Counted from the first letter of the stretch, positions 270 through 53,454 are shown. The stretch: 64,000 nt of DNA from Chthonomonadaceae bacterium (GCA_035650735.1 DASRGZ010000096.1:87526-151525), one strand, 5' to 3'. A program made the numbers and translations. The notes: generated by a model not told the origin, from the letters alone.

Positions 270-1574
270 TTACGCGGTGCAGCCGGACTCGCCAGACTCC
301 TCTTCGCGCCATTTGCCCAGCAGCGTCAGCGGGCCGTTGGGAAGCAGCGGAATATCCCGCCACTGCTCAATCAGCTTTTTATAGGCACGGCCCACCGCGC
401 GGATATTGCGGTTGAGGTCGTACAACCCCAGGGGATTGACATGGCCGTTATTCTCCCGCAGCGCCGTATCCCAGTCCACCTGGTCGGTAAGGCTGAACCA
501 GGTCATGCCGCAGATGGGAACGCCATCCTGGCGTAAACGCTGAATATTCGACCAGATTTTCCAAAGCCAGCGCTCGGCGTCGGGCTCGGCCTTGTTGGTT
601 TCCGTATGCATCACCGGCAGGTTATAGCGGTCGTAGTACTCGCGGGTGATGACGTAGTAGCCGAAGATCTCGCCGGCAAAGACGCTGCGCTCCTCGCCCA
701 CCAGCATATGCTCATTGGCGACGTAGTAATCGTTGCCCATCACGCAGTGTTCCCGGAGGTTCTGGGTCATAAAGTAGTCGTACTCTTCTTGGGTCATGCC
801 ATTATCGAGCAGGTAGGAGTACATGGAGGAATTGACCCGATGCCCGTAATTGAGGTCGAGGGAGAGAAAGCGCCGCTCGTTGTAGAGTTCGGCCTCACTG
901 ACCAGGCTCGGGTCGGTGGTATGGGTGTACTCCGAGGACTCGCTCTGGATGAAGAGGGCGCGCGGGCAGACCTCCAGGATGGCGAGCATGGCGTCCACAT
1001 TGGCGCGCACCAGATGCTTGAGGGCCGTGACGAAGGCCTTATCCGAATGCAGACACTCGTTCCACCAGCCGTACCAGGCGCTGAACTCGGCGGCAATATA
1101 CATCTCGTTGACGGGCGTATAGCACCAGACCCAGGGATAGCGCTGGGCGAAGGCGCGGGCATAGGCGGGAAAGTGCTTGGGAAACTCTGGGTTCTGGAAG
1201 TTGCCTAGCCAGTCGGGCACGCCGAAGTGGCACAGATCCAGGATAGGCACGATGCCCAGCTTCCGCATCTCCGGCAGCACCCTATCCGTCCAGGACCAGT
1301 CGTATTGGCCCGGCCCCAGGTGCATCTTATAATAGGGCGGACCATAGCGCAGATAGCGGATGCCCATCTCCCGCGTTAACTGGAGGTCTTTCTTCCAGTG
1401 CTTGTAATGGCCGCACTTCTCCAATTCATCCTGGCGTACGGTTCCCTTGGGGGTCTGGATGGTGGGATAGCTGCACTCGATGCCAGTGGCGAAGAGAAAG
1501 CGATCGGTGATCGGGTTGCGCCTGGGCTGTGGCTTATTGCGGCTTAGCATCACCCTTCCTCCGGGAGAGATCAT
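270..1574 (-). CDS. Glycoside hydrolase family 1-like (clan GH-A) protein
   Basis: FLFATGIECS N-terminus, GHYKHWKKDL, LCHFGVPDW, acid/base PVNE, nucleophile HTETN, DQVDWD; true start may be ~1550. Confidence 0.8.
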   Translation of the reverse strand: MISPGGRVMLSRNKPQPRRNPITDRFLFATGIECSYPTIQTPKGTVRQDELEKCGHYKHWKKDLQLTREMGIRYLRYGPPYYKMHLGPGQYDWSWTDRVLPEMRKLGIVPILDLCHFGVPDWLGNFQNPEFPKHFPAYARAFAQRYPWVWCYTPVNEMYIAAEFSAWYGWWNECLHSDKAFVTALKHLVRANVDAMLAILEVCPRALFIQSESSEYTHTTDPSLVSEAELYNERRFLSLDLNYGHRVNSSMYSYLLDNGMTQEEYDYFMTQNLREHCVMGNDYYVANEHMLVGEERSVFAGEIFGYYVITREYYDRYNLPVMHTETNKAEPDAERWLWKIWSNIQRLRQDGVPICGMTWFSLTDQVDWDTALRENNGHVNPLGLYDLNRNIRAVGRAYKKLIEQWRDIPLLPNGPLTLLGKWREEESGESGCTA

Positions 1575-1714
1575 GGGCGAATAGGGTCGCCGAGTCTGCT
1601 TGTTGTGGCTCCAGGCGGTAGCGTTCTGGCCTCATCCCTCATCCCTCGCACTCATTGCACTCATTTGCAGCTTTTTACGTTTTGCAGGCGTATTTGTTCC
1701 TCCGTTCCAGTGAT

Positions 1715-1828
1715 TCGTGGCTCGTGGTTCGTGGGTTGTTCTCCGCGCCACGAGCCACGATTATCCGCGTTGCTTGCAATGCTGCCCAAACAGCGCGTCT
1801 CTGGTCGTGGCACGAGCCACGATTATCC
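1715..1828. repeat. Heptamer-based inverted/direct repeat cluster (TCGTGGY / CACGAGCCACGATTATCC)
   Basis: TCGTGGCTCGTGG at 1715-1727 is complementary to CCACGAGCCACGA at 1748-1760; CACGAGCCACGATTATCC at 1749-1766 and 1811-1828. Confidence 0.7.
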
Positions 1829-2932
1829 AGTTCTGGTGGGCGGTGGGCTGCTGTCTCCGGCGCCTGGCGCTTCCTGCCTCTGGGGCGGGGACCCTAGCTT
1901 GTTCGCTTTATAGAAGCCTGCGGGATCGGATTTCAGGAAGGCAATCATCTTCGGCAGCGTCTCCCGCAGGGAGTGCCTGGGCTCCCAGCCCAGCAGGTTG
2001 CGCGCGCGGGTGATATCCAGGGCATAGTGGTCGTCGGCGATGTCTACCATCGAGGGCTTGATGAACGGCTCCTCGCCGGGGATAGCGTTCTCAAGCCACA
2101 CGCCCGCCTTGGCGAGCGGCTTGGGAATCTCGCGCGTGACCCAGCCCTTGCCATAGAGGAGGCGGTAGATTTCGCGCTGGAGATCATCGTAGCTGAGCGT
2201 TTCCGGCTCACCGATCAGCAGCACCAGCTCGGTTGGCAGGCTAGCGCGCCGCGCGACCACCTGCCACAGAGCCTCGACTAAGTCATCCACATGCAGGAAC
2301 GCCTGCCCATGCGAGAGGTCGCCGGGAAAGACGGTGGCCGTGAGCCGATGTTCGTAGAGCCGCTGGATCTGGTGGGCAATCGGTATCGAACGGCACTGGT
2401 CGTCGTAGACGCCCGCGATGCGCAGGAGGACGTAGGGAATATTGCCGTGCTCGGCCCGGATCCGCTCTTCGGTCTTCACCTTCGATTTGGGATAGTCCCA
2501 TTTCGGCTCCAGCGGCCAGTCCTCGTCAATGCGCTGGCCGGGCTGGCAGGGCGCATAGACGAGCATGGAGCTGGAAAAGACAAACTGCTCGACCTGGAAG
2601 TTTTGCAGGCCGCACAGCAGCCGCTCCGTACCGCGCACCGTGACCTGCTCGTACTTCGGGCTGGGCTCGCCTGAGAAGTCGTAGTAGGCCGCCAGGTGGA
2701 TCACGGAGGCGATCCGGTCGCCGTGGCGGTCGCGCACGTCGAAGAGGGCGTGCTGTACGCTGTCGTCGGAGGTCATGTCAATATAGATGTACTCGGCTAG
2801 AGGAGACGCATCTTTAGGATGCTCTTGATCCAGGCCGATGACCCGGTAGCTTGCGGCAAATCGTTGGGCGGCAGCGCTTCCGATCAGGCCGCTGCTGCCA
2901 GTGATAAGCAAAACCTCTTTCTCTGAAGCCAT
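1823..2932 (-). CDS. NAD-dependent epimerase/dehydratase (extended SDR)
   Basis: ITGSSGLIG Rossmann motif, HLAAYY, FSSS, catalytic YPKSK. Confidence 0.85.
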   Translation of the reverse strand: MASEKEVLLITGSSGLIGSAAAQRFAASYRVIGLDQEHPKDASPLAEYIYIDMTSDDSVQHALFDVRDRHGDRIASVIHLAAYYDFSGEPSPKYEQVTVRGTERLLCGLQNFQVEQFVFSSSMLVYAPCQPGQRIDEDWPLEPKWDYPKSKVKTEERIRAEHGNIPYVLLRIAGVYDDQCRSIPIAHQIQRLYEHRLTATVFPGDLSHGQAFLHVDDLVEALWQVVARRASLPTELVLLIGEPETLSYDDLQREIYRLLYGKGWVTREIPKPLAKAGVWLENAIPGEEPFIKPSMVDIADDHYALDITRARNLLGWEPRHSLRETLPKMIAFLKSDPAGFYKANKLGSPPQRQEAPGAGDSSPPPTRTG

Positions 2933-3000
2933 TATAAATCCTATCTCCCTATCGCGTTCGTACCTTTTTGCGGCAGGGTTTAGCCTGCCGCTGTGGGGCT

Positions 3001-3088
3001 CTGCTAGGGTCGGGCCTACAACGGACTGCCAGGGTCGGCGCTACAATGGTTCGCGCCTCCGCCTAGCGACAGCCCTCCGCCTAGCGAG
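3001..3088 (+). repeat. Nested A2-B2 repeat element, copy 1
   Basis: Two A units (CTGCYAGGGTCGG..CTACAAYGG), TTCG loop, two B units (CCTCCGCCTAGCGA). Confidence 0.8.
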
Positions 3089-3147
3089 GCCCGCCGCCCA
3101 CCTGCGTGGGCGGGAAAAGACACCACTTAGCCGCTGTTTCAGGCCCC

Positions 3148-4557
3148 TTACGCCTCGGAGTCGCCTTCGGGGAGGCAGGTGTTGCGCTGGCTGCGCATCA
3201 GGGTCGTGGCGGCGGTGAGGGCGGCGGCGATCAGCCCGACGGCGGCCAGCGGCTTGGCAATCGTTATCAGCTTGTGCGGCAGTGTGCCGTACTCGACGTT
3301 GTGGATGCCCCAGCGCTGAAACTGCTGCCACTTCATGATGCCTTTGCCCGCGTGTTCCACTCCCAGGCCCTTCATCAGCTCCGGCATGGCCGTGCGTAAA
3401 ACCGGATGCCCGGGCACGAAATAGACGCGGGGATCGTTTTTGTACTTGGGCAGCGCGGCATCGTCAAAGACAATATACGGCCCCTCCTTGAGATGCTCCT
3501 CAAAGTTGGGGTCTTCCACCTCGCCGATCATGATCGTCGGCGTGCCCTTGAGCCACATCACCTGAGTTAGCTCACCGCGCCGCAGCATGCTGTCCAGCAC
3601 GCTCTTGACGTGGCCGATGGTGCCGGGCAGGCTGACCCCGCCGCCCACCAGGAAATTGACGGGCAGGTAATCGTAGCCCTTATGGCCGGGCCATGCCTGG
3701 AAAGAGACCTGCTCCAGCGGCACGCCGACGTAGTGGATCGGCTCGCGCACGCCCAGACCGCGCGCTTCCGCCTCCCTGGCAAAGTTGAGCCGCTGCCAGT
3801 CGTGGCCCAGCAGGCGGCAGATCGTGACGTCGGTGGCGACGGGATCGGTAGAGGCCAGGATGCAGCCGCACCAGTGGGGCAGGTCGGCGATGGGGCCATC
3901 GCCCTCCCCGGCGATGAGGGCATCCACCACGCACAGGGCCGGTCGGGTCACCATCATTATATCCATGAAGCGCCCGATCATCTCTTCATCGCCGTGGTTG
4001 TATTCCCGCCAGTTCTGGTTGACCGTGCCGACCCAGTTTTTCAGCGTCCCGGAGATCGGCTCGATGTGATGGTTTTTGGCCTTGGCCGCGTCAATGATCA
4101 CGTCGGCGTCGAGCAGCGGCTCGGGCAGCGGCACCTCCTGGATCACCCTGCCTCCCGGAATAGGCACCTTGCGGTTGGGAACCTTGTCGCTGCCCAGATC
4201 GATCAGCTCCGCGCCCTCCTTCTGGGCTATCGCCGCCATGCCGGTGATCTTCATGCAATCCAGGGAGGAGAAAAAGCCGCCGCTCGACTCGGCCACCTGC
4301 ACCCTGCCGGCGCCCGCCTCTTTCGCCAGCCGGATCAGCGCGCCGACCACCAGCGGATCAGTAGTACATCCTTCTTCCGCCGAATAGTAGACCGTCTGAT
4401 TGGGCTTGATCAGGACCGTCTGGCCGGGCTTAATAAATTGGGATATGCCTCCCAGCAGGTCAATCGCCTCGCGCACGAGGCCCAGAACGCGCTCTTGCGA
4501 GCGATGCTTTTCATTGGTGTGCGCGATAGCTACCGTCGCGCCCTGCTTGCCTTCCAT
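3148..4557 (-). CDS. DUF362 domain protein with C-terminal hydrophobic helix
   Basis: LLGGISQFIKPGQTVLIKPN, TTDPLVV, AKAKNH, LKNWVG, DALIAGEGDGP, ASTDPVATD; start placed at MEGKQG behind AGAGGA. Confidence 0.8.
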   Translation of the reverse strand: MEGKQGATVAIAHTNEKHRSQERVLGLVREAIDLLGGISQFIKPGQTVLIKPNQTVYYSAEEGCTTDPLVVGALIRLAKEAGAGRVQVAESSGGFFSSLDCMKITGMAAIAQKEGAELIDLGSDKVPNRKVPIPGGRVIQEVPLPEPLLDADVIIDAAKAKNHHIEPISGTLKNWVGTVNQNWREYNHGDEEMIGRFMDIMMVTRPALCVVDALIAGEGDGPIADLPHWCGCILASTDPVATDVTICRLLGHDWQRLNFAREAEARGLGVREPIHYVGVPLEQVSFQAWPGHKGYDYLPVNFLVGGGVSLPGTIGHVKSVLDSMLRRGELTQVMWLKGTPTIMIGEVEDPNFEEHLKEGPYIVFDDAALPKYKNDPRVYFVPGHPVLRTAMPELMKGLGVEHAGKGIMKWQQFQRWGIHNVEYGTLPHKLITIAKPLAAVGLIAAALTAATTLMRSQRNTCLPEGDSEA

Positions 4558-4633
4558 GCTTTCATCCTCTCTAAAAAGTTCAGACAATAGTGCGGGGCCA
4601 GCACTACCAGGCTCTTTCCGTTTTGCTCCTGTG

Positions 4634-4735
4634 GCCCTCACCCAGCAGACCTCCCCCCCGTCCCCTCTCCTTCGTAAGGAGAGGGGAGAGGAGAAGCCAA
4701 GTCTCCCCTAGAATTGGGGAAGGGGGTGGGGGCCG
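4634..4735. repeat. REP-like palindromic cluster
   Basis: CCCCTCTCCTTCGTAAGGAGAGGGG hairpin plus related purine/pyrimidine arms. Confidence 0.75.
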
Positions 4736-4751
4736 GAACGAGCGGGCAAGT

Positions 4752-5813
4752 TCAAATAATCATGTGGTTCCAGCCGTTATAGTTTTCCCGAACCGGGCCG
4801 CGCCGGAAGCTGAGGACGATCAGCGCCACGCCGACGCAGACATCGTTTATTTTCAAGGCATAGCTCGCATCCAGCAGCGTCCAGGGCGCAAAGAGGAGCA
4901 GCCACACGCCGCAGACGACGCAGAGGAAGCGCACGGGCCGGGCCACTTCCGACAGGGCCACGATGCTGCCGGCGAGGACGAGGGCGCCCACCACATAGTT
5001 GCTATGCGCCGCCTGGCCGTGCCCTTGCAGGAGGGGCGGCGCGGCCAGCAGCCAGCAGCCGAGCGCGATGTTGACGAGCAGGCTCCAGGGGACGTTGAGG
5101 CCCTGGAAAGGAGCGGGACGGGAAGCGTCGGCCTCATTGCGCGCGTTCTCCGCCTCCTGGCTGCGCCTCCCGCCATGCCAGAACGTCTCCCAGAGCGAGT
5201 CGCCGACCCGTGCGCTCGTAATCAGGAACTGACAGGCCGCCACGACCTCATCCGAGGCCAGCGCGGCCAGCAGGAACGTGCAGGCCGCCACAACCAGGCA
5301 CAGGCTGCACCAGTTGCCGACCACAATGGGCTGGAGCATCATCAGGATCAGGCTCGTCAGGCCCAGCGGGATGACCAGCAGGCCGAAGGACAGCACGAGC
5401 CAGGGCTTGGTGTACCAGCGTCGCGCATCGCCCAGCAGCAGGCAGATCATCTCCAGCAGATAGAAGCCGGCCCCGATCACCGCATCGGGAATCGGGAACG
5501 CCTGCGCTATCCCGGAGTGCAATATCCGCGTCGTGCCCTGGCCGAAGAAGGGATCCCAGGCGGCACGCAGGACGCCGACCTCACAGAGCGCCAGGTAGGT
5601 CGCGATGGCGAAGCTGATCAAGGCCAGCGTCAGGATAGGGAAGCGCTGGCTCCAGGCGGAGGGATTATAGCTCCAGCCGGGAGGCGCCTCCGTGGCTATC
5701 TCCGGGCGGCGCTGATGCTGTGCGGCCTTTTGCGGCTCCTGCGCCGCCTGCTCCGGCGCAGGAGAGGCCGGCGTATCGCCCCGCTGCGATTTACTTTCCG
5801 TAACGGAAGTCAT
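4752..5813 (-). CDS. Vitamin K epoxide reductase (VKOR) family membrane protein with C-terminal SPW repeats
   Basis: PPGWSYNPSAWSQR, WDPFFG, PIPDA, active-site WCSLC, LGCWLLAAP / GVWLLLFAPW repeats. Confidence 0.8.
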   Translation of the reverse strand: MTSVTESKSQRGDTPASPAPEQAAQEPQKAAQHQRRPEIATEAPPGWSYNPSAWSQRFPILTLALISFAIATYLALCEVGVLRAAWDPFFGQGTTRILHSGIAQAFPIPDAVIGAGFYLLEMICLLLGDARRWYTKPWLVLSFGLLVIPLGLTSLILMMLQPIVVGNWCSLCLVVAACTFLLAALASDEVVAACQFLITSARVGDSLWETFWHGGRRSQEAENARNEADASRPAPFQGLNVPWSLLVNIALGCWLLAAPPLLQGHGQAAHSNYVVGALVLAGSIVALSEVARPVRFLCVVCGVWLLLFAPWTLLDASYALKINDVCVGVALIVLSFRRGPVRENYNGWNHMII

Positions 5814-43970: not shown

Positions 43971-45878
43971 TTATTCCACAATTACATCTACGACCGCAGG
44001 GCTGCTCTGTTCCCCATAGGCGGCGCGCGCCACCCCGCGCAGGAGCTTGCGGCCCGCTGCGCCGCGGGATTCCAGGGTCAGGGTGAGCGTTTCCACCTGA
44101 CGGCCCATCGGCGGCAAATCCGTTATTGCCACCGCACGGCGGTTGAGCGCCCAACCCTCCGGGGGCGTCAGCAACAGCGTGCCAGTGAACTCGCGTCCGC
44201 CGAAGTTGTAAACCTGGGCTTCTACCGTCGTCGGTTGGCGGGAGCGCAGGCGAAAGGCTTGCGCCTCCTTGTCCGGCCGGGCCTGCGGCAGGCGCAGGCG
44301 CACCACGATCCCGCGCAAGCCATACCGTGGCGGCGGTGCCTCCGCAGAGGAGGCATTCGGCGCCGAGGGTGGGGGAACCACCTCCGGCAGCGCGTTCTGC
44401 GGCAGCAGCAGATAGACGGGCGCAGACGAGAGCGTCAGAACCGGCACGCCGTTGCGCGCGTCGGTCTCCATCGGGTGCGGTGTACCGACCACATCCAGCG
44501 TTTGCAGCGCCTTGCTCTGTTTGCGCGCGAACGGGGCTAGAGAGAGCGGCACGCGCACGCCCGGCCGGTCCGACCAGGCCATCAGCGTCTCGCCCTCGCC
44601 GTTGTTGAAGACGTGCAGATGCAGGCCGGGCTGCCGGAAGCGGATTTCGCCCAGATAGATCGCCGCGCCGAGCGCATCCGTCAGCGTCGCCAGCGCCGCA
44701 TAGCCCGGATAGGGCTTGAGGTCAGCCGTGAGCGTGCCGAACTCCACACCGTTCTCGAGGTAGTGTGGGAAGACGAAGAAGAAGTGCTTGTCCGTGCCGT
44801 GGGCCAGCGACTCGACATAGGACTTGGGGATAAACTCGGCCTGGCGGCGCTTGTCCTCCGGCGTAAGCGTGCCATCAACGGCCCGCAGGGGGATGCCCGC
44901 CTCCGTCAGCCAGACCGGGCGGCCCACTGCGCCGCTTTTGCGCATCAGTTCCCGATGGCTCCGTGCACGTGCCGCGTAGTTTTGAGGATTATCATAGATG
45001 TGGTAATTGTAGATGTCGTAATAAGCCGCAGCGCCGTTTTCCACCAGGCTTTGGGCAAAACGTCCGGGGGCCAGCGCGAAGGAGACCTGCGTGATCGGCA
45101 AATTGGATTCCTCGGCTTTAAAGCCCAGGTAGATCGCCTTGAGGAAGGCAGCGTACTCGCTGCCGGGGTCTACGGAGAAGGCCGGGATGTCCGCCTCGTT
45201 CCAGACCTCCCACGCCTTCACCTTGCCCCGGAAGTGACGCGCGGCGGCGCGGGCGAACTGATAGGCATCGCGCAGATCATCGGGAAAGCGGTTGGTGGCG
45301 CCGTCGGCGCGCGCCCATTTGGGCGTATCGTGGAAGACCTGGTAGACGTTGAGGCCGCGTTTTGCCTGCGCGCTGGCGGAGCGGTCGTAGCGGCCCCAGG
45401 CGAACTTGCCGCGCTCCGGCTCGACCTCGCCCCAGGAGAGGCGGTCGCGCACCCAGAGGAACCCGGCCCGGCGCAGCAGTTCTGCCCCCTCTTCGTAACG
45501 GGCTGTCGGGACCAGCCAGGAGAGCGCGGCGTCCACGGCGGGGCGGCCTTCCGCGCGCGGGTGCGGGCGCGGCACAACGACAAACGGGGTCGGCAGCGCC
45601 CGGCCCTCTATCTCGGCGGGCAGGATCTCATAGTAGCCGCGCGGCAGCTTCCCCAGGCTGATGGCGCTCGCCGGGAACTCGCCCTCCTTCACCACCTGCC
45701 CTGTGTAGCTCATCACGCGCACGCGGACGCGCGGCCCGCCACCTTCTGCCGTAAACCGCACCGCCTCGCCATCCAGGAAGACGTTTCCCGGCTCTTGCGA
45801 GGCAAATCGCACCTGCGCGCCCGCCTGCGCCGCCATTCCGAGCAGCAGTCCGACGCCGCAAAGCCCTATCAGGTTCAT
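43971..45878 (-). CDS. Secreted clan GH-A glycoside hydrolase (GH39/GH5-like) with C-terminal Ig-like domain
   Basis: Signal peptide, WVRDRLSW, WEVWNE, NYHIY, VWLTEAG. Confidence 0.75.
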   Translation of the reverse strand: MNLIGLCGVGLLLGMAAQAGAQVRFASQEPGNVFLDGEAVRFTAEGGGPRVRVRVMSYTGQVVKEGEFPASAISLGKLPRGYYEILPAEIEGRALPTPFVVVPRPHPRAEGRPAVDAALSWLVPTARYEEGAELLRRAGFLWVRDRLSWGEVEPERGKFAWGRYDRSASAQAKRGLNVYQVFHDTPKWARADGATNRFPDDLRDAYQFARAAARHFRGKVKAWEVWNEADIPAFSVDPGSEYAAFLKAIYLGFKAEESNLPITQVSFALAPGRFAQSLVENGAAAYYDIYNYHIYDNPQNYAARARSHRELMRKSGAVGRPVWLTEAGIPLRAVDGTLTPEDKRRQAEFIPKSYVESLAHGTDKHFFFVFPHYLENGVEFGTLTADLKPYPGYAALATLTDALGAAIYLGEIRFRQPGLHLHVFNNGEGETLMAWSDRPGVRVPLSLAPFARKQSKALQTLDVVGTPHPMETDARNGVPVLTLSSAPVYLLLPQNALPEVVPPPSAPNASSAEAPPPRYGLRGIVVRLRLPQARPDKEAQAFRLRSRQPTTVEAQVYNFGGREFTGTLLLTPPEGWALNRRAVAITDLPPMGRQVETLTLTLESRGAAGRKLLRGVARAAYGEQSSPAVVDVIVE

Positions 45879-45959
45879 ACACCGTTTGCGTCCTGGCATT
45901 CCACGTAAACTCCTCAAGTGATGTCAGTATCCTTTGGATTACGCGGACTATTTCGCAAC

Positions 45960-46316
45960 TCAGCGCGCTTTTCCTTGCCTCTTCTCCGGCCACTCTACCA
46001 GCCGATCAATCAGATAATTGGCACCATAGATCGCCATGAGTACCTCGGCAATAGTCCTCTCAGGTACCCGCCGTGTCGCATAGGTGACGCCCACGAGCAG
46101 CGCAAAGGCAGCCACGAAGCCGTACCGGGCGGGACAGTCCTTGCAAGCGAGAGTCAGGAAGAGGAACGCCACGGAGACGCTCATGACAAAGCGCAGGCCC
46201 AGAGGATAGCCGGCGAACGCCGCCCAGGCCGCGACGGCCCCAACCGCAACGAGCGCAGGGATGCGTAGCCTTGCCAACCAGTCTCGGAGCTTCGCATTCA
46301 CTTCTACGATCTCCAT
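45960..46316 (-). CDS. Small multi-TM membrane protein; possible second immunity/accessory gene of the RHS locus
   Basis: 118 aa, about four hydrophobic segments; directly follows the duplicated module. Confidence 0.6.
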   Translation of the reverse strand: MEIVEVNAKLRDWLARLRIPALVAVGAVAAWAAFAGYPLGLRFVMSVSVAFLFLTLACKDCPARYGFVAAFALLVGVTYATRRVPERTIAEVLMAIYGANYLIDRLVEWPEKRQGKAR

Positions 46317-46421
46317 ACTTCTGCAATCTCCATATCGGTAGCGTTTTGTACCGGCTCAGTGCTGTGTGAAATCGATTCTCCTCCTTTCCGTTCGGCTGGC
46401 GTTGGTGACCGTTGGCAGCTA

Positions 46422-46715
46422 CTACTGCTTATTATGTCCAGACGACGATGCGCGGAAAAAGGCGTAGGCTAAACTAAACCAAGCAAGCGCCACAAGCAGG
46501 CTAAAGAACTTCTGCCATCCTCTGGTCGAGGGCAGCAGATAACCGCTCTCCTGAAGCTTCTCCAAGCCCCAGGCAACCATCAGGAAAGGCACGGACGACT
46601 CGGCAATCAGGAGCGAGAGTGTAAGCGGCTTCTTGCGACGCAACAACCTAAGAAGAGACCATATCCAGATTGTTAAGCCAACGAGTATAAGGCTGAGCGC
46701 AGCAAATACCTGCAT
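46422..46715 (-). CDS. Putative immunity protein, copy 2 (3 TM)
   Basis: MQVFAAL...LLRRKKPLTLS..IAESS.PFL...ESGYLLPSTRGW; AGGAGG RBS; paralog of 47615-47914. Confidence 0.75.
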   Translation of the reverse strand: MQVFAALSLILVGLTIWIWSLLRLLRRKKPLTLSLLIAESSVPFLMVAWGLEKLQESGYLLPSTRGWQKFFSLLVALAWFSLAYAFFRASSSGHNKQ

Positions 46716-46844
46716 TTCTGCTCCCCTCCTATCCGGCAACAAGACAAACGAGCGCAATGCCGGCTGTACTCATATCTGCCTCCGCGTAATCGAGACGCTG
46801 CCGGCCCTCCATCGAGGAACGACCGATGGAGGGCCGGCATCACC

Positions 46845-47525
46845 TTACTGGCCTTTTATCCAGATGGCTATGTGTTTGGCGATGGCAACCCCGCCAACGG
46901 TCACAAACACAACGCTAACGATCACCGGGGCAAGCGTGGTCGCTCCTGCGCCAGCCGCGAAAGCCCCTCCAATCATGGCTATGTCGCCAAGCACCTGCCC
47001 GGCATGGCTGAGTGCAGGCCAGCCGAAGACGTCGCCCATACTTCCAATCCCGTAGCCAATGGCGCTGAGGCCTCCGAGCCGGACAGGCGTCCTGCCAAAG
47101 ATTCTACCCAGCTCGTCTATCATATCGGCCATGTGTCCGGTCGGATCCAGGCAATTGACGGGATCGTGATGGCAGTACAGATACGGAGGCTCACTCAGCA
47201 CGGTATCCCTGGTGAGGAACCGGCCAACCTGCGGGTCGTAGTAGCGCGCTCCCACCAGCAGCAGGCCCGCATCCCCGTCGGTCCGGTAGCCTGAGGTGGC
47301 GGCGAACATATAGGGGTTGGTGGACGAGCCGGTGGTTGCCACCGTCTGGCCGAAGGCATCGTAGGTGAGGGTGCCGGTCACGCTCTGGCTGGCGTTGGTG
47401 ACGGTGCGCTCGGAACCCAGCCCATCGAAGAGCGGGTACTCGCCATCCTTTCGCACCAGGGCGTTGCCGTAGGTGTAGGTGGCCGTCGTGGTCGAACCCT
47501 GCGCCTCCAGCCACACATGCCCCAA
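46845..47525 (-). CDS. Orphan RHS core plus variant C-terminal tip (no convincing start of its own)
   Basis: Near-identical to the last ~226 aa of 48024-51185; GARYYDPQVGRF, DPVNCLDPTG. Confidence 0.85.
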   Translation of the reverse strand: MGHVWLEAQGSTTTATYTYGNALVRKDGEYPLFDGLGSERTVTNASQSVTGTLTYDAFGQTVATTGSSTNPYMFAATSGYRTDGDAGLLLVGARYYDPQVGRFLTRDTVLSEPPYLYCHHDPVNCLDPTGHMADMIDELGRIFGRTPVRLGGLSAIGYGIGSMGDVFGWPALSHAGQVLGDIAMIGGAFAAGAGATTLAPVIVSVVFVTVGGVAIAKHIAIWIKGQ

Positions 47526-47614
47526 GAGCGGTAGCGTTTTGTACCGACTCGGTGCTTTGTGAATTTGATTCTCCTCCTTTCCGCTCAGCTGGCCGTAGTG
47601 ACTGTTGGCAGCGA

Positions 47615-47914
47615 CTACTGCTTATTGTGTCCAGACCACGAGGAGCGAGAATAGCCATAGGCGAAAATGAGAAAAGCAAGCGCCATAAGCAGGCCAACGA
47701 ACTCCCGCCATCCTCTGGTCGAGGGCAGCAGATAACCGCTCTCCTCAAGCCCCTTCAAGCCGACCGCAACAGCCAGGAAAGGCAAGGATGACTCGGCAAT
47801 CAGGCGCGAGAGCGTAAGCGGCTTCTTACGACGCAACAGCGTAAGGAAGGACGATATCCACATTGTTAAGCCAACGCCAATAAGCACAAGGCCGAGCGCA
47901 GCCATTACCTGCAT
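47615..47914 (-). CDS. Putative immunity protein, copy 1 (3 TM)
   Basis: MQVMAALGLV...; AGGAG RBS; immediately downstream of the RHS gene. Confidence 0.75.
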   Translation of the reverse strand: MQVMAALGLVLIGVGLTMWISSFLTLLRRKKPLTLSRLIAESSLPFLAVAVGLKGLEESGYLLPSTRGWREFVGLLMALAFLIFAYGYSRSSWSGHNKQ

Positions 47915-48023
47915 TTCTGCTCTCCTCCTATCCGGCAACAAGATAATAGTCCCGACGCCTCCGTGAAATCGAGACACTGCCGGCCCTCCATCGAGGAACG
48001 ACCGATGGAGGGCCGGCATCACC

Positions 48024-51000
48024 TTATTGGCCTTTTATCCAGATGGATATTTCTCTGGCGATGGCAACCCCGCCAACGGTCACAACCACAACGCTAACTA
48101 TCACCGGGGCAACCGTAGTCGCTCCTGCGCCAACTGCGAAAGCCCCTCCAATCATGCCAATATCGCCAAGCACATTTCCGGCATGGCTGAGGGCAGGCCA
48201 GCCGAAGATATCGCTCATTTTCCCGATTACGTAGCCAATGCCACCGAGTCCTCCAAACCGGGCAGGCGCTCTGTTAAGGATTTTACCCAGATCATCTATC
48301 ACATCGGCCATGTGCCCGCTCGGATCGAGGCAATTGACGGGATCGTGATGGCAGTACAGATACGGAGGCTCACTCAGCACGGTATCCCTGGTGAGGAACC
48401 GGCCAACCTGCGGGTCGTAGTAGCGCGCTCCCACCAGCAGCAGGCCCCCATCCCCGTCGGTCCGGTAGCCTGAGGTGGCGGCGAACATATAGGGGTTGGC
48501 GCTGCTGCCCGTAGTGCCCACTGTCTGGCCGAAGGCATCATAGTTGATCGTGGCGGTTACGCTCTGGCTGGCGTTGGTGACGGTGCGCTCGGACCCTAAG
48601 CCATCGAAGAGCGGATACTCGCCATCCTTTCGCACCAGGGCGTTGCCGTAGGTGTAGGTGGCCGTTGTGGTCGAACCCTGGGCCTCCAGCCAGACATGCC
48701 CCAAGAGCGGGTCGGTCAGGAACTGGGTGGTCACCCCGCCCGCCGTCCGGCTGATGCGCCGACCGAGCGCGTCATAGGCGAAGCTCTTGGTCACGCCCCC
48801 GCCCGTGAGGCTGGTCAACTGGCCGTCGAAGTCATAGCTGAGCGTGTAGGCCGTGCCGGAGAGCGTGCGGCTGGTCTGCTCGCCGTTGGCATTGTAGCCA
48901 TAGCTGTTGACGATGCCGCCGCTGGTGCTGGTCAACTCATCGTCCGCATCGTAGGTGAAGCTGGTCGTTACCCCGCCTACCGTCTGGCTGGTGCGGTTTC
49001 CTACTCCGTCCACGACGTAGCTTTTGGTGTAGGGGTTGGTCCCCGTCCGGCTTTCCGAAGTGAGCCGGTGCGCCCCATCGTAGCCATAGCTGACGACGGA
49101 GCCGTCCGCCTCGGTCACGCTCGTCCGCAGGTCGTCGGCATTATAGCCATAGCTGAACGAGGAGAGGGTCGCGCCGCCGCCGGTCTTGTTGGTGACGCTG
49201 GTGAGGCGGTTGGCCGCATCATAGGCTTTGGTGACGCTGGTTCCGTTGGGGTTGGTGATGCTGGTCTCGTTGCCGTTGGCATCGTAACCGTAGGAGGTCG
49301 TGCCGCCGGTCTCCGAGACGGAGGCAAGCTCGTTACGGGCGGTATACGAATAAGTAATCACGCGCCCGTTGGTGTCGGTGAGCGTGGAGAGCAGCCCCTT
49401 CTGGCCTACCGCATCGTAGCTGTAGGTGAAGCGGGCCACATTGTTGAGCTTCTCACTCGTGATGCGGTTGGCCGCGTCGTAGGTGCGGCTCCAGGTTCCG
49501 TTCGAATCCGTCCAGCCGGTCAGGTTGCCCTCCGGATCGTAGCTGAACGTCTTCGTGCTCGAATCGGGATAGGTAATGGTGGTTACCCGCTCCCAATTGT
49601 CCAGCGTGTAGTTGGTCGTCCGGTTCAGCGCATCCGTCCGGCTGGTCTTGACGCCCAGGGCGTTGTAGCCGAACGAGGTGACGTGGCCCAGAGGCGTTGT
49701 CACGCTCGTCAGGTCGCCGTTGGCGTTGTAGCCATAGGTGGTCGTGTGATTGTTGCTGTCAGTCTTAGAATGAACGGTCCCATCCGCGTTATAGGTGTAG
49801 GAGGTAGTACTGAGAACCGTCCCGTTCGAATCCTTCTGCTGGGTCTGGATCAGGTTCCAGTTCAGGGTGGCATCGTAGGTGTTGACCGTCTGGTGACCGA
49901 GGGGGTCGGTGGCGGTCAGCACGCGGTTCCGGCTGTTGTAGGTCCAGGTCCACTGATGCGTTAATGGGTCCGTTCGGCTGGTGACGTTGCCGTTAGAATC
50001 GTAGCCGAACTGCCACAGATGCCCGTTGCGATCCGTCACGGAGGTCCGGTTGTTGTTGCTGTCGTAGCCGTAACTCTCTGTGTTATTCAGGGCGTCCACC
50101 ACCGAGGAGAGCCGCCCTGACGCATCGTAATTGTGCTTGATCACATGACCGTTCGGGTCTGTAATGACGGTCTGGCTCGTGTTGTAGGTAAAGCCTGTCT
50201 GGTTGAGCAAAGGGTCCTTCTGCCAGGCGAGGCTGTTGTCGGCGTTGTAGCCGAACGTCCAGTTGCTCCCGCGCCGGTCGGTGTAGGTGGTAATGTCGTG
50301 ATTGGCGTTATAGACGAACTGCTGCGTGTAGGTGAAGCCGCCCACCGCCGGCCAGGTGATGGTTACCAGGTCGTTGCTGGCGTTGTAACTGAGGGTCCAC
50401 TGCCGGTTGAGCGGGTCCGTGATCGTGCTGATTCGATTGCTTCCATCGTAGCCCAGAGTGATTGTCCGGTTCGTCGGGTCTACGATGCTGGTGAGGTAGT
50501 TGCTCGCGTTGTAGTTAAGCGTGATCGTATTGCCGTTCGGGTCGGAGATGGACGTGCAGTACCAGGTGCTGCCGCTCTGCCGCCCGAAGTGGTACTTGAT
50601 CTGCCCTTTCGTGATGACATCGTAGCTGGTGGCCGGGTTGCCGTTGGCGATCAACTGGTCGTGGACGCCGGGCGGAGGCGAGAAGCTGCCGTTGATGTTC
50701 TGCGTATACGGGACGTTTAGATCGTCGCCCCAGCGCATGGTCATAATGCCATTGTCAACGTCCCAGGTCAGTGTCAGCAGGAAGCTGTGCGTCCACTTCT
50801 GGCCGAGTTCCCGGTTGTAGCTGCCCTTGCTGTTGTGGTAAAGCGTGAACTGAACGGGCAAGCCGCCCCGCGCCGTCCAGCCGACCAGCGGGAAGCTGCT
50901 GAGCTTATTGCCGTTCACCGTGTTGGTGTTGTTGATATTGCCTTCCCACGGATAGGGCGTGCCGGCATCGGGATCAGTTCCGGTGGTGAAACCGTTCGGC

Positions 51001-51185
51001 ACAATCTGCGCGCCTACGATGGCCCGCATCTCGTCGGGCGTGAGCGTGCGGATATGGCCTACCGACGGCGACGGCTGCGCTAAAGCCAGCGCGCCCGGCG
51101 CTAACACGAATGACCAGACAAAGCAGATCACAGTCAAAAAAGCCAGGGGCCGCCAGACGCGGCGAAAGGTTCTTCGCTTATACAT
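48024..51185 (-). CDS. RHS/YD-repeat protein with signal peptide, double-glycine-type leader and hydrophobic C-terminal tip
   Basis: Many YD repeats, RHS core, PVNCLDPSG autocleavage motif, ~95-aa Gly/Ala/Val-rich tip. Confidence 0.92.
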   Translation of the reverse strand: MYKRRTFRRVWRPLAFLTVICFVWSFVLAPGALALAQPSPSVGHIRTLTPDEMRAIVGAQIVPNGFTTGTDPDAGTPYPWEGNINNTNTVNGNKLSSFPLVGWTARGGLPVQFTLYHNSKGSYNRELGQKWTHSFLLTLTWDVDNGIMTMRWGDDLNVPYTQNINGSFSPPPGVHDQLIANGNPATSYDVITKGQIKYHFGRQSGSTWYCTSISDPNGNTITLNYNASNYLTSIVDPTNRTITLGYDGSNRISTITDPLNRQWTLSYNASNDLVTITWPAVGGFTYTQQFVYNANHDITTYTDRRGSNWTFGYNADNSLAWQKDPLLNQTGFTYNTSQTVITDPNGHVIKHNYDASGRLSSVVDALNNTESYGYDSNNNRTSVTDRNGHLWQFGYDSNGNVTSRTDPLTHQWTWTYNSRNRVLTATDPLGHQTVNTYDATLNWNLIQTQQKDSNGTVLSTTSYTYNADGTVHSKTDSNNHTTTYGYNANGDLTSVTTPLGHVTSFGYNALGVKTSRTDALNRTTNYTLDNWERVTTITYPDSSTKTFSYDPEGNLTGWTDSNGTWSRTYDAANRITSEKLNNVARFTYSYDAVGQKGLLSTLTDTNGRVITYSYTARNELASVSETGGTTSYGYDANGNETSITNPNGTSVTKAYDAANRLTSVTNKTGGGATLSSFSYGYNADDLRTSVTEADGSVVSYGYDGAHRLTSESRTGTNPYTKSYVVDGVGNRTSQTVGGVTTSFTYDADDELTSTSGGIVNSYGYNANGEQTSRTLSGTAYTLSYDFDGQLTSLTGGGVTKSFAYDALGRRISRTAGGVTTQFLTDPLLGHVWLEAQGSTTTATYTYGNALVRKDGEYPLFDGLGSERTVTNASQSVTATINYDAFGQTVGTTGSSANPYMFAATSGYRTDGDGGLLLVGARYYDPQVGRFLTRDTVLSEPPYLYCHHDPVNCLDPSGHMADVIDDLGKILNRAPARFGGLGGIGYVIGKMSDIFGWPALSHAGNVLGDIGMIGGAFAVGAGATTVAPVIVSVVVVTVGGVAIAREISIWIKGQ

Positions 51186-51345
51186 AGCTCTTCCTTCCTC
51201 CGTTTATTGGCGTTGGAAGGGAAAATCGGCTATAATGCAAGGGCCGATCCCTTTTGATGGATCGGTACTCGCTCGGCCTTGCTCCGGCAAGAGTAAGAAG
51301 GCCGTGCGGCGTCAGAGAAGCGGGGGCATTCGGGCGAGGACAACG

Positions 51346-52101
51346 CTAACGCGATAGCCTCAGCAGAATGCCCCCTGTGCGTCTGAGCAGTTCGTCAGTG
51401 GTTATCACCTCCTCGTTTATCTTATTCGGGTCATGGATGGTCGCCCTATCTCCATCCACCGAGAGGATCGCCACGTAGTGATCGCCGTCCACCCAGGCGA
51501 TAGCTATGCGATCCAGATGGGCGAGGGCTTCACGGTCCATCTGTACGCCATCCGCTTGCAGCCCTTTGGCCTGGGCCGCGTGCGCCAATCCATCCAGGGT
51601 CGTGCCGCGAGAATTAGTGCCTGCGTGCTGGCGCAACTCGTCCAGGGTGGCCGGTATGCCGAGCTTACGGCAGGCGAGCAGGAGAGCGCGCGGCCCACAA
51701 TCGGTTGGCGCAGACGCGGACAAGGGGAGGTTCGGACTGGTTAGTGATGGATGGATCGCCCGGGAGGACGGGCCGGTCAGGGCGCGTTCGCAGAGGACGC
51801 GCTGGCGGACCAGGAAAGCGCGTTCGGCGTCCGTCCGGTGGGGAGAAGAGAGCAGAGTATCCAGCAGAGCGAGCGCGCAGTGATAGTCCTTGCGAGCGTA
51901 GCGGCGCACCGCTTCCTGGTACTCAGCGGAACTTCGAACAGAAAGGCGCTGGCTCTGGCGCAGGGGAACAGAGGTCGTGCTGCCAGCAGAGACGAGAATA
52001 GCAGTTGTATGCGGCTCCTTCCGCTGACATCCGGAACAACTTGCAAACAACCCTATTGTCGCCACAAAGACAAATCCGGCGAGAAAAGGTTGACGATGCA
52101 T
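51346..52101 (-). CDS. Stand-alone C39-family cysteine peptidase, probable lipoprotein
   Basis: Hydrophobic leader ending FASCSGC; DCGPRAL, GTTLDGL..AA..KGL, AWVDGDHYV, IHDP; no ABC domain. Confidence 0.85.
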   Translation of the reverse strand: MHRQPFLAGFVFVATIGLFASCSGCQRKEPHTTAILVSAGSTTSVPLRQSQRLSVRSSAEYQEAVRRYARKDYHCALALLDTLLSSPHRTDAERAFLVRQRVLCERALTGPSSRAIHPSLTSPNLPLSASAPTDCGPRALLLACRKLGIPATLDELRQHAGTNSRGTTLDGLAHAAQAKGLQADGVQMDREALAHLDRIAIAWVDGDHYVAILSVDGDRATIHDPNKINEEVITTDELLRRTGGILLRLSR

Positions 52102-52296
52102 ATACCCGCGTATGGCCTAGCTCTCCTGCTTGATTGTCTCTTCTGTATTAGCACTCGAAATATACGGATGCTAAAGTTAAAATGTTCCCAAGTTCTTGAG
52201 GGGCCAGGACAGGGCCATAGGCTAACTTGGCGATTTGGTTCTACGGGCTTGATCGCCCGGAAAGAAAAAAGAAAACGGTAGGACCCTGCTAATGGA

Positions 52297-53454
52297 CTAA
52301 ATCGAGCCATCCGTGATGGCCGCCGCAATCGCAGGCAGCAAGACGCCTTCCGGCCAGCCCACCGGAGAGTAGCCGACGCGCACTACAACCAGATCTAGAG
52401 AGGGCACGACGTAGCACCGATTGGAAGCGAAGCCCATAAAGGCGAAGGCGTCTTGCGGCACGCCCGGCCACTGGCTGCCGTTCGTGTTCGTCCAGAAGGT
52501 GTAACCGTAGCTGGGGTTAAGCTCCTGCGAGCTTCGGGTCGCCTGTTCCAGCCACTCCGCCGGAACGATCTGCTGCCCCTGCCAGCGGCCCCGGCGCAAG
52601 CAGAGGTATCCGAGGCGGGCAAAGTCACGGGCGGAGAGTCGCAGACCGCTGTGCGCGTTGGTGTGCGGCCCGATATGTCCCGCCCCGCCTTGCCGATCCC
52701 ATCCGAAGTTCTCGATGCCCACCGGCGCAAACACGCGCGCCTGCATATAGTCGGCGATCTCCTGGCCGGCGGCGCGGGCAAAGATCAGAGAAAGGTGCGC
52801 GAACGCGGCGTCCGAGTAGTCCCAGACCGTTCCCGGCTCGCCGAGCAGACGGGCGGCAGAATGGCCGAAACGGTTGGCCTCTTTTCCCAGGGCGATCTCA
52901 TACTCGCCGCCTCCCGGAGCCACCGCCAGACCGATAAGGCCGTGATCCTCTCCTGGAATGCCGGAGGTCATGCTCAGCAGATGCCGTAACGTGATCGTCT
53001 CCTTGAGGGGATCGGACAGGGGCAGCCCTTCAGGAATGAAGCGATAGGCCCGGCTGTCCAGGTCGATCTGCGTCTCCTGCGGAAGCTGACAACGGCGGCT
53101 GTCTTCCAGCAGCATTCCATAGGCGATGCTGGTCGCCGACTTGGTACACGACCAGACATCGAACGTGGTGGCGGGCATGGTCGGAACGGCATACCACTCC
53201 CGCACTAGATACCCATGCCGCACAATGACGATGGCCCACGGCCCGGCATAGAGGGAACGCTGCTTCTCTTCGACCAGGCGCAGGCGTTCTAGGTCCATGC
53301 CGGCCAGAGACCGCACGTCCGCCTCGGTTTGCGCGTGCCGCCATCCACCTGCCGACTCCGAAGGAGGGAAATACTCGTCCGGGTGTCCTGAGGCGGGCTC
53401 CTGCGGCTCTTCTCCGGATGGATGTGGTTGCACCCTGATTCTCCTTTCCCACAC
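52297..53454 (-). CDS. Serine hydrolase, beta-lactamase class C-like
   Basis: SCTK (SxxK), LRHLLSMTSG, WDYSD, SARDFARLG. Confidence 0.88.
   Translation of the reverse strand: MWERRIRVQPHPSGEEPQEPASGHPDEYFPPSESAGGWRHAQTEADVRSLAGMDLERLRLVEEKQRSLYAGPWAIVIVRHGYLVREWYAVPTMPATTFDVWSCTKSATSIAYGMLLEDSRRCQLPQETQIDLDSRAYRFIPEGLPLSDPLKETITLRHLLSMTSGIPGEDHGLIGLAVAPGGGEYEIALGKEANRFGHSAARLLGEPGTVWDYSDAAFAHLSLIFARAAGQEIADYMQARVFAPVGIENFGWDRQGGAGHIGPHTNAHSGLRLSARDFARLGYLCLRRGRWQGQQIVPAEWLEQATRSSQELNPSYGYTFWTNTNGSQWPGVPQDAFAFMGFASNRCYVVPSLDLVVVRVGYSPVGWPEGVLLPAIAAAITDGSI

Follow-up and report, generated by a model that had tools for sequence, protein, structure and literature searches.

Toxins of the rearrangement hotspot (RHS) type are among the commonest of bacterial weapons; to our knowledge, their exit from the producing cell and the processing of their N termini are poorly understood outside type VI secretion (T6SS) and Tc systems. 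In the Rhs effectors of the T6SS, a cut just before the DUF6531 plug detaches the N-terminal delivery segment from the cage; how this happens varies from protein to protein and is not understood (PMC10684867). The C39 peptidases of the peptidase-containing ATP-binding cassette (ABC) transporters (PCATs) and ABC transporter maturation and secretion (AMS) exporters read a leader pattern, Leu(-12)-x3-Glu(-8)-Leu(-7) before Gly-Gly, Gly-Ala or Gly-Ser, of which residues -4, -7 and -12 (V-4, L-7 and L-12) occupy a hydrophobic groove in a crystal structure (PMC6363468). Here we describe a locus in which an RHS toxin and a C39 peptidase are paired, at positions 45960-52101 of a 64,000-nucleotide stretch of DNA from a soil Chthonomonadaceae bacterium, a member of the Armatimonadota (GCA_035650735.1 DASRGZ010000096.1:87526-151525; below, the window), which is contig C96:87526-151525 of a 6.5-Mb genome that is 97.6% complete. 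With a probability of about 0.6, we read it as a non-T6SS RHS toxin locus in which a dedicated, lipid-anchored C39 peptidase processes the N terminus of the toxin outside the cytoplasm. A first-pass annotation, made from the sequence of the window alone, had proposed such a pairing; its interpretation overall is supported by the analyses below, the cleavage itself being a prediction.

The locus consists of six open reading frames (ORFs), all on the minus strand, in the order and at the coordinates that the annotation had assigned them. The first, P0001 (51346..52101), encodes a stand-alone cysteine peptidase of 251 residues, with the form of a lipoprotein precursor. That it belongs to the C39 family is confirmed by a match to Peptidase_C39 (PF03412; residues 132-241, 72.6 bits compared with a cut-off of 22), and, as anticipated, Pfam and NCBIfam models find no ABC domain in it. 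The stand-alone homologues number 62, with lengths of 155-312 residues; in the 27 that were aligned, Cys135, His208 and Asp224-Pro225 are invariant (27/27), and a HMMER alignment places Cys135, His208 and Asp224 on the catalytic residues of PCAT1. The catalytic domain comprises residues 131-251 (51349..51711), the codons of Cys135, His208 and Asp224 lying at 51697-51699, 51478-51480 and 51430-51432, respectively. In an AlphaFold model of the whole protein (mean predicted local distance difference test score, pLDDT, 81.7; predicted template modelling score, pTM, 0.56) a disordered linker, at approximately residues 110-130, is followed by a confidently modelled C39 domain (pLDDT 89-98 for residues 131-251). 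Its closest structures in a Foldseek search are the peptidase domains of PCAT1, ComA and LahT (E down to 1.8e-8), that of PCAT1 superposing with 31-33% identity and a root-mean-square deviation of 1.7-2.0 A over approximately 120 columns. Pfam family, fold and catalytic Cys/His/Asp are, therefore, shared with the exporter peptidase domains, i.e. those of PCAT1, ComA and LahT150.

The setting of the peptidase is, by contrast, different from that of a PCAT, where the C39 domain is a cytoplasmic part of an ABC transporter. Residues 1-25 (52027..52101) have the appearance, as judged by eye, of a signal peptide with a lipobox ending S-G-C25, and a lipobox-type x-G-C after a hydrophobic N terminus is seen in 24 of the 27 aligned rows, two of the others being incomplete at the N terminus and one having no Cys; a lipoprotein-like signal had also been reported at the outset. 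Also unlike a PCAT peptidase, that of the locus has an extra N-terminal domain of three TPR-like helices (residues 54-109, 51775..51942), recognised from the AlphaFold model and from conservation. The helices (54-57/59-69, 73-84 and 91-109) have block-mean pLDDT values of 83-98, A76 and Q100 are invariant, and Y61, L83, F96 and C104 nearly so; TPR models match at the same position in relatives in which the peptidase is fused to RHS (see below).

The second gene, P0002 (48024..51185), encodes an RHS polymorphic toxin of 1053 residues, with matches to RHS_repeat (E 2.2e-81, in 14 stretches), YD_repeat_2x (in 10), DUF6531 and Rhs_assc_core. Residues 1-36 (51078..51185) resemble a Sec-type signal peptide, with a basic n-region and a hydrophobic core, ending P-G-A-L-A-L-A36 before Q37; by eye and by the -3/-1 rule we infer cleavage after A36. 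The pattern F-x-W...P-x-x-A-x-A in the signal is conserved in 18 homologues. Immediately after the signal, residues 37-59 (51009..51077; QPSPSVGHIRTLTPDEMRAIVGA) have the features of a double-glycine-type leader or propeptide, with a predicted cut after A59, and G58-A59 and the motif before it, R46-T-L48-T-P-D-E52-M53-R-A-I56-V-G58-A59, lie where they had been placed by the first-pass annotation. Counting A59 as -1, L48 is at -12, E52 at -8, M53 at -7, I56 at -4 and G58 at -2, and the spacing of the R46/L48/E52/G58 motif equals that of the published C39 recognition pattern (PMC6363468). PCAT leaders and the locus leader can thus be written with one pattern, L(-12)x3E(-8)[LM](-7)...hydrophobic(-4)...G(-2)[GAS](-1). 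In an alignment of 18 N-terminal sequences the only invariant columns are R46 (-14), L48, E52 and G58, within a region that is otherwise variable (mean column identity 42%). The residue at -1 is Ala in 12 of these leaders, Gly in 1, Ser in 1, Arg in 3 and Met in 1. By contrast with PCAT systems, in which the cargo is a small peptide, the leader of the locus is not at the extreme N terminus, being preceded by the 36-residue Sec-type signal, and the cargo is an RHS cage of approximately 110 kDa. The predicted cut site is approximately 29 residues before the DUF6531 plug (residues 88-154, 50724..50924; PF20148, 31.5 bits compared with a cut-off of 24.1), a domain identified as the N-terminal plug in Tse5 (PMC10684867).

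The pairing of the two genes is conserved. A pattern-based scan, with one genome taken per species, gave 24 related loci, and among those for which the DNA downstream extends to 600 nt or more (20 loci) an RHS gene directly follows the C39 gene in 17, the gap being -34 to 463 nt. The arrangement is absent from three: a locus with a short C39 protein without the helical domain (L017), one with a 3'-truncated C39 gene (L022) and one that encodes a distant membrane protein of a Pirellulaceae genome (L027). The last (L027:6831-9436), the sole match outside the Armatimonadota in the 24-locus scan, is of 540 residues and has a C39 domain of the DCGPRAL type; the next gene there encodes a protein with a prepilin-like N terminus, with no RHS. 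All 17 adjacent RHS genes have the leader motif; that of L019 is encoded upstream in a separate frame, and the gene of L006 is split. When the ORFs of the 24 loci were clustered, C39 and RHS alone proved to be widely shared, other clusters being of antisense or sporadic ORFs. The named sources of the protein relatives, i.e. Chthonomonadaceae, Capsulimonadaceae, Armatimonas and Fimbriimonadales, are all Armatimonadota.

The phylum as a whole was covered with 401 Armatimonadota genomes, of which 93 are matched by a profile of the peptidase family (E up to 1e-10) and 31 by a 60-position profile of signal plus leader (E up to 1e-3). There are 51 leader-profile matches, 32 of them reaching the Gly motif, and 29 of these 32 share their contig and strand with a peptidase-family match that lies no more than 1.4 kb upstream of them; in this test too, the suggestion that the leader motif co-occurs with the peptidase is upheld. 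Of the other three, one has a 74-residue C39 remnant directly upstream (L029), one is at the start of a contig, and one (L058) has an upstream ORF that, by eye only, resembles the C-terminal half of a C39 domain. In one of the 29 (L030; G011:C85, approximately 1336-5713) the C39 gene is separated from the leader-bearing RHS gene by a gene for a CBM96 carbohydrate-binding protein. Losses also appear to be coupled. The locus L053 has an RHS protein with the same signal and without the motif; the 10 kb retrieved contains no C39 gene, and the genome (87% complete) has no match to the family. Conversely, two of three C39 homologues without a downstream RHS gene have lost the catalytic Cys, DCGPRAL having become DRGPRAL in one (L054, G379:C611) and SNGLRAL in the other (L056, G239:C88), as if decaying after loss of the partner. 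To judge from these distributions, motif and peptidase gene are gained and lost together.

In other relatives the peptidase and the toxin are one chain. Among 23 large ORFs, fetched for matching the peptidase profile, 18 carry C39 and RHS together; of the remaining five, two are truncated at contig ends and the other three encode ordinary PCAT ABC transporters, these true PCATs occurring as separate genes (L049, L051 and L052). The fused proteins, of 1300-3400 residues, have the order signal, TPR-like helical region, C39, Cys-rich linker, DUF6531 plug, RHS cage and a diverse tip, and two of the 18 (L042 and L044) are giants, extended at the front by fn3, Ig and GH85_C repeats. When the C39 region of one fusion was used as a database query, at least 141 proteins were returned, and PF03412 and PF05593 are both present in approximately 114 of the 120 that were listed; they are named only generically in the source databases. 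A search for longer forms with the C39 domain of the window itself returned only two PCAT-like proteins, the fusions having come from the genome scans. The fusion of C39 in front of the plug in many relatives implies that peptidase and cage form one functional unit; the expectation that C39 would be found adjacent or fused to RHS in relatives is thus borne out in both forms. The fused loci (L028, L031, L033-L047 and L050, e.g. L028:1019-6997, on the minus strand; proteins P0071-P0190) have tips that include HINT, AHH, HNH, REase-7, eCIS_core/metallopeptidase-like and glycine-rich types. Their plug begins D-P-V-N-x-x-T-G, compared with N-T-x-N-G-N-K in the window. The 19 leader-profile matches that do not reach the Gly motif cover the signal part only, and several are at the start of fused C39-RHS proteins; the split and fused classes of RHS therefore share one unusual signal peptide. 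Its form is (P)RW(L/M)RR...F-[AST]-W...L-x-x-P-x-x-A-x-A (e.g. window 51078-51185, L031, L032 and L053), which is more conserved than a generic Sec signal requires and includes a twin-arginine-like pair.

Modelling of the complex, which had been proposed as a check on the pairing, favours binding of the leader by the peptidase. With residues 50-251 of the peptidase (27-row alignment) and residues 34-76 of the RHS protein (18-row alignment) as input, the score was 0.82, the best of three controls reaching 0.00; of 157 solved complexes, 116 attain a score of 0.82, as do 2 of 215 mismatched pairs. At least 84% of the contacts are common to the runs, and the partner has a pLDDT of at least 59. The most confident contacts are those of RHS L48, E52, M53 and I56 with L169 and G185-V186-Q187 of the peptidase, and the modelled interface includes peptidase residues 133-136 (Cys135) and 206-209 (His208) and RHS residues 41-62, with 52-62 holding G58-A59. 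The model places L-12, M-7 and I-4 in the peptidase groove, the same groove that receives the leader in the PCAT systems.

Taken with the conserved gene pair, the model leads to the following proposal. Both proteins would cross the inner membrane by the Sec route, the peptidase to be lipidated at Cys25 and the RHS protein to lose its signal after Ala36, such that the mature RHS protein would begin with a 23-residue propeptide imitating the leader of a double-glycine bacteriocin. An amphipathic helix in the propeptide (L48, M53 and I56) is modelled as docking in the C39 domain's hydrophobic groove. The predicted cut by the peptidase, after G58-A59 and in front of the plug, may either mature the cage or free it from the cell envelope. 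The C-terminal aspartyl protease motif of the cage, PVNCLDPSGH, would free a 95-residue, glycine-rich and probably membrane-active tip inside the cage, and the downstream small membrane proteins would protect the producer, with an orphan tip and immunity module behind them. The RHS protein would thereby undergo the three cuts put forward in the first-pass annotation, by signal peptidase, by C39 and by autoproteolysis. The locus shares with the T6SS Rhs effectors (Tse5, RhsA, Rhs1 and TseI) the cage, the DUF6531 plug, the DPxG motif, the enclosed tip, the candidate immunity genes and the orphan tips. It differs from them in that export would be by a Sec signal; there is no VipB or PAAR match in the whole genome (97.6% complete), and Pfam scans of the 44 larger ORFs of the window found no VgrG, PAAR, TcB or ABC exporter gene, as the first-pass annotation had also reported. 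In the T6SS proteins the N-terminal cut is made by the cage, whereas for the locus the prediction is that a separate C39 peptidase makes it, at a leader motif; the cut thus appears to be delegated to a dedicated enzyme. With the Sec-exported RHS/YD toxins of the WapA type, the locus has in common a signal peptide, RHS repeats, a variable tip and putative immunity.

Several observations weigh against processing at the leader. Upstream of C135, neither the 27-row alignment nor the alignment with PCAT1 has a conserved Gln, so that the oxyanion Gln is missing, as had been pointed out at the outset, and the stretch before D134-C135 is variable and modelled as disordered. In the LahT150-leader crystal structure, however, the Gln is 4.3 A from the oxyanion and its role has been questioned (PMC6363468). 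The S1 site of C39 domains has been described as narrow, and the Arg or Met at -1 in 4 of the 18 leaders fits it poorly. Nor does covariation come to the rescue: no column of the C39 domain (131-251) separates the partners of leaders with a bulky -1 residue (R/M) from those of leaders with a small one (A/G/S), the sole columns that do so falling either in the N-terminal region or on residue 132 of the variable linker that precedes the domain. At E up to 10 the NCBIfam leader models match 0 of the 18 leaders; short leader-family models rarely reach threshold. The export signals of both proteins, including the lipobox, were judged by eye. The fused proteins have no L-x3-E-L...G-G pattern between C39 and plug (103 aligned and 79 parsed sequences), the conserved elements there being P-G-S-x-x-D-x-x-L after C39 and G-[PA]-[ST]-x-G before DPVNLATG; without a recognisable leader helix, the built-in peptidase could have a different task. 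Finally, C39-leader complexes have already been solved (6MPZ and 6V9Z, both among the structural matches), so the high score of the modelled complex may reflect likeness to these and not this pair, and its calibration holds only roughly because custom alignments were used.

Three other accounts of the locus should be considered in this light. The closest precedent for an exported C39 protein is FapD of the Pseudomonas Fap system, a periplasmic, stand-alone peptidase encoded beside the exported proteins that it serves, the active-site Cys of which is required for secretion of FapC, with its substrate unknown; Fap proteins are described there as lacking the canonical C39 sequence (PMC5557850). 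By analogy, the C39 protein of the locus may be a secretion accessory, needed for passage of the RHS protein through the outer membrane, that either has a different component as its target or employs the leader mainly for targeting, with loss of the propeptide incidental to export. With six secretin matches in the genome and no T6SS sheath or PAAR match, the periplasm must have a different exit, and in the complex model the leader binds whatever follows. However, the 24 related loci share no further conserved gene next to C39 and RHS, no barrel or channel gene is among the window's 44 larger ORFs, and the fusion of C39 to RHS itself points to the RHS chain as the substrate, such that we regard an accessory role as unlikely. 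The analogy with FapD also has limits in that the locus has neither a FapF-type channel nor amyloid or other fibre subunits among those ORFs, its partner is an RHS toxin, and its peptidase has a putative lipid anchor.

Also unlikely is that the lipoprotein is a tether and not a protease, binding the leader uncut and holding the RHS cage on the surface of the producer for contact-dependent delivery. Inactive C39-like domains of RTX exporters do bind their substrates, a non-catalytic C39-like domain (3ZUA, of HlyB) is among the structural matches of the model, and both the bulky residues at -1, which should disfavour cleavage, and the missing Gln would be accommodated. Set against this are the invariance of the three catalytic residues in the 27 homologues and the loss of the Cys in two of the three homologues without a downstream RHS gene, as if catalysis were selected only while the partner exists. 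Least probable of the three is that the peptidase acts elsewhere, e.g. on the tip, the immunity protein or proteins of the target cell, with the N-terminal motif kept for another sorting or folding factor. The lack of a clear leader in the fused relatives and of leader model matches would agree with this, and C39-like domains do also occur as tips of polymorphic toxins, i.e. Tox-PL-C39 (PMC3482391). By contrast, the invariant residues of the motif are exactly at the positions that C39 domains read (PMC6363468), motif and peptidase gene appear to come and go together, C39 in the loci examined is upstream of or N-terminal to the cage and never at the tip position, and the tips and immunity genes vary while C39 stays. 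Processing of the toxin N terminus by the lipid-anchored peptidase remains the reading that we prefer.

How far the arrangement is without precedent depends on the comparison that is made. A survey of polymorphic toxins (Zhang et al. 2012) describes accessory or in-line peptidases as a general theme, and C39 occurs in the sections of it available to us only as a toxin tip (Tox-PL-C39), not as an N-terminal or neighbouring peptidase for RHS processing (PMC3482391). A full-text literature search, with supplementary files outside its scope, found no paper linking C39 to RHS processing. The statement of the first-pass annotation that no characterised system of this kind is known holds, within that search, for the processing of RHS by C39; for an exported stand-alone C39 protein it has to be qualified by FapD (PMC5557850). 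The label 'hybrid bacteriocin/RHS' likewise describes the parts, a relationship to bacteriocin export being hypothetical, there being no hit among the 18 leaders to the leader hidden Markov models (HMMs) and no PCAT seen among the only three PF03412 matches of the genome; for the two outside the window this is from the ORFs read around them, which show no ABC transporter, and not from a family scan. The evidence suggests that the kinds are known, i.e. RHS polymorphic toxins and C39 peptidases with double-glycine-type leaders, and that the pairing with RHS is new. More tentatively, and at somewhat less than even odds, the loci may represent a phylum-wide and undescribed deployment of RHS toxins, in which Sec export and a bacteriocin-type leader replace the PAAR/T6SS adaptor, and a lipid-anchored or in-chain C39 domain makes the N-terminal cut as a regulated release or arming step outside the cytoplasm.

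The locus gives a residue-level hypothesis, naming an enzyme, its recognition residues and a bond; it draws on the conservation of the gene pair, and on natural fusions, in a phylum that has been little studied. If the proposal is correct, the range of C39 peptidases would widen to large proteins and to the outside of the cytoplasm, recognition of double-glycine leaders would extend from small intracellular peptides to an extracellular toxin of 100 kDa, and N-terminal processing of Rhs proteins would gain a defined enzyme and cut site. Peptidases of the FapD type, the substrates of which are undefined, may work by the same logic, and the leader and peptidase pair could serve as a portable tag-and-release module.

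The C-terminal part of the RHS protein is of a more familiar type. The RHS-associated core (residues 882-958, 48312..48542; TIGR03696, 53.2 bits compared with a cut-off of 32.5) ends in P-V-N-C-L-D-P-S-G-H, an autoproteolysis motif of the PxxxxDPxG type, to which an aspartyl protease role is assigned from studies of other Rhs proteins (PMC10684867). The tip that follows, of 95 residues (959-1053, 48027..48311), is rich in glycine and hydrophobic residues; it has no Pfam or NCBIfam family and no PDB relative, and leads from the structure atlas were weak (scores of 0.83 or less). It is presumed to be a membrane-active toxin from its composition and from its candidate immunity proteins, which are membrane proteins. 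The tip of Tse5 is a membrane pore former.

Directly after the tip is the gene for an immunity-like small membrane protein, P0003 (47615..48022; 135 residues, the true start probably being the Met at residue 37), which has no relatives in the other related loci, as expected of tip-specific immunity. It is followed by P0004 (46845..47525), an orphan RHS 3' core plus tip of 226 residues (TIGR03696, 60.1 bits) that is 87% identical to RHS residues 828-1053, and by P0005 (46422..46757), a second immunity-like membrane protein and a paralogue of P0003 with 69% identity. The RHS 3' end, the tip and the immunity-like gene have been tandemly duplicated (45900-48300), with a period of approximately 1.19 kb and 84-88% DNA identity, the two tips being, by eye, approximately 75% identical over their last 95 residues. 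The arrangement of the genes and the duplicated module fit a layout of cognate immunity and orphan tip, in which the membrane proteins would have a protective role. The last of the six ORFs, P0006 (45960..46316), encodes a membrane protein of 118 residues without a Pfam or NCBIfam family; with no homologue in its own genome or in the 24 related loci, it is probably outside the C39-RHS system. The remainder of the window consists of metabolic and housekeeping genes. A scan of 45500-52700 for promoters and terminators gave counts not above those for shuffled sequence. The 9 sequencing runs listed as containing the stretch include none of RNA.

Elsewhere in the genome, the two other PF03412 matches are of different kinds. 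One (C48:10215-10703) is in a C39-like protein of 162 residues without a signal peptide, unrelated to RHS loci, that keeps a Gln before its Cys (YYPQEKDYSC). The other (C141:2474-3456) is in a C39 gene of the fused type, apparently frameshifted and interrupted by a repeat. Two RHS genes without 5' parts are also present (C122:13816-16503 and C66:25424-30830). A combination of the C141 piece with that of C122 or C66 was considered as a second C39-RHS locus and not counted as an independent linked pair, because all of these pieces end at repeated elements and their frames do not join simply. One such element is at the ends of 7 contigs and a second at those of 5-6 contigs; the repeats look like insertion sequences that broke C39-RHS genes of the fused type.

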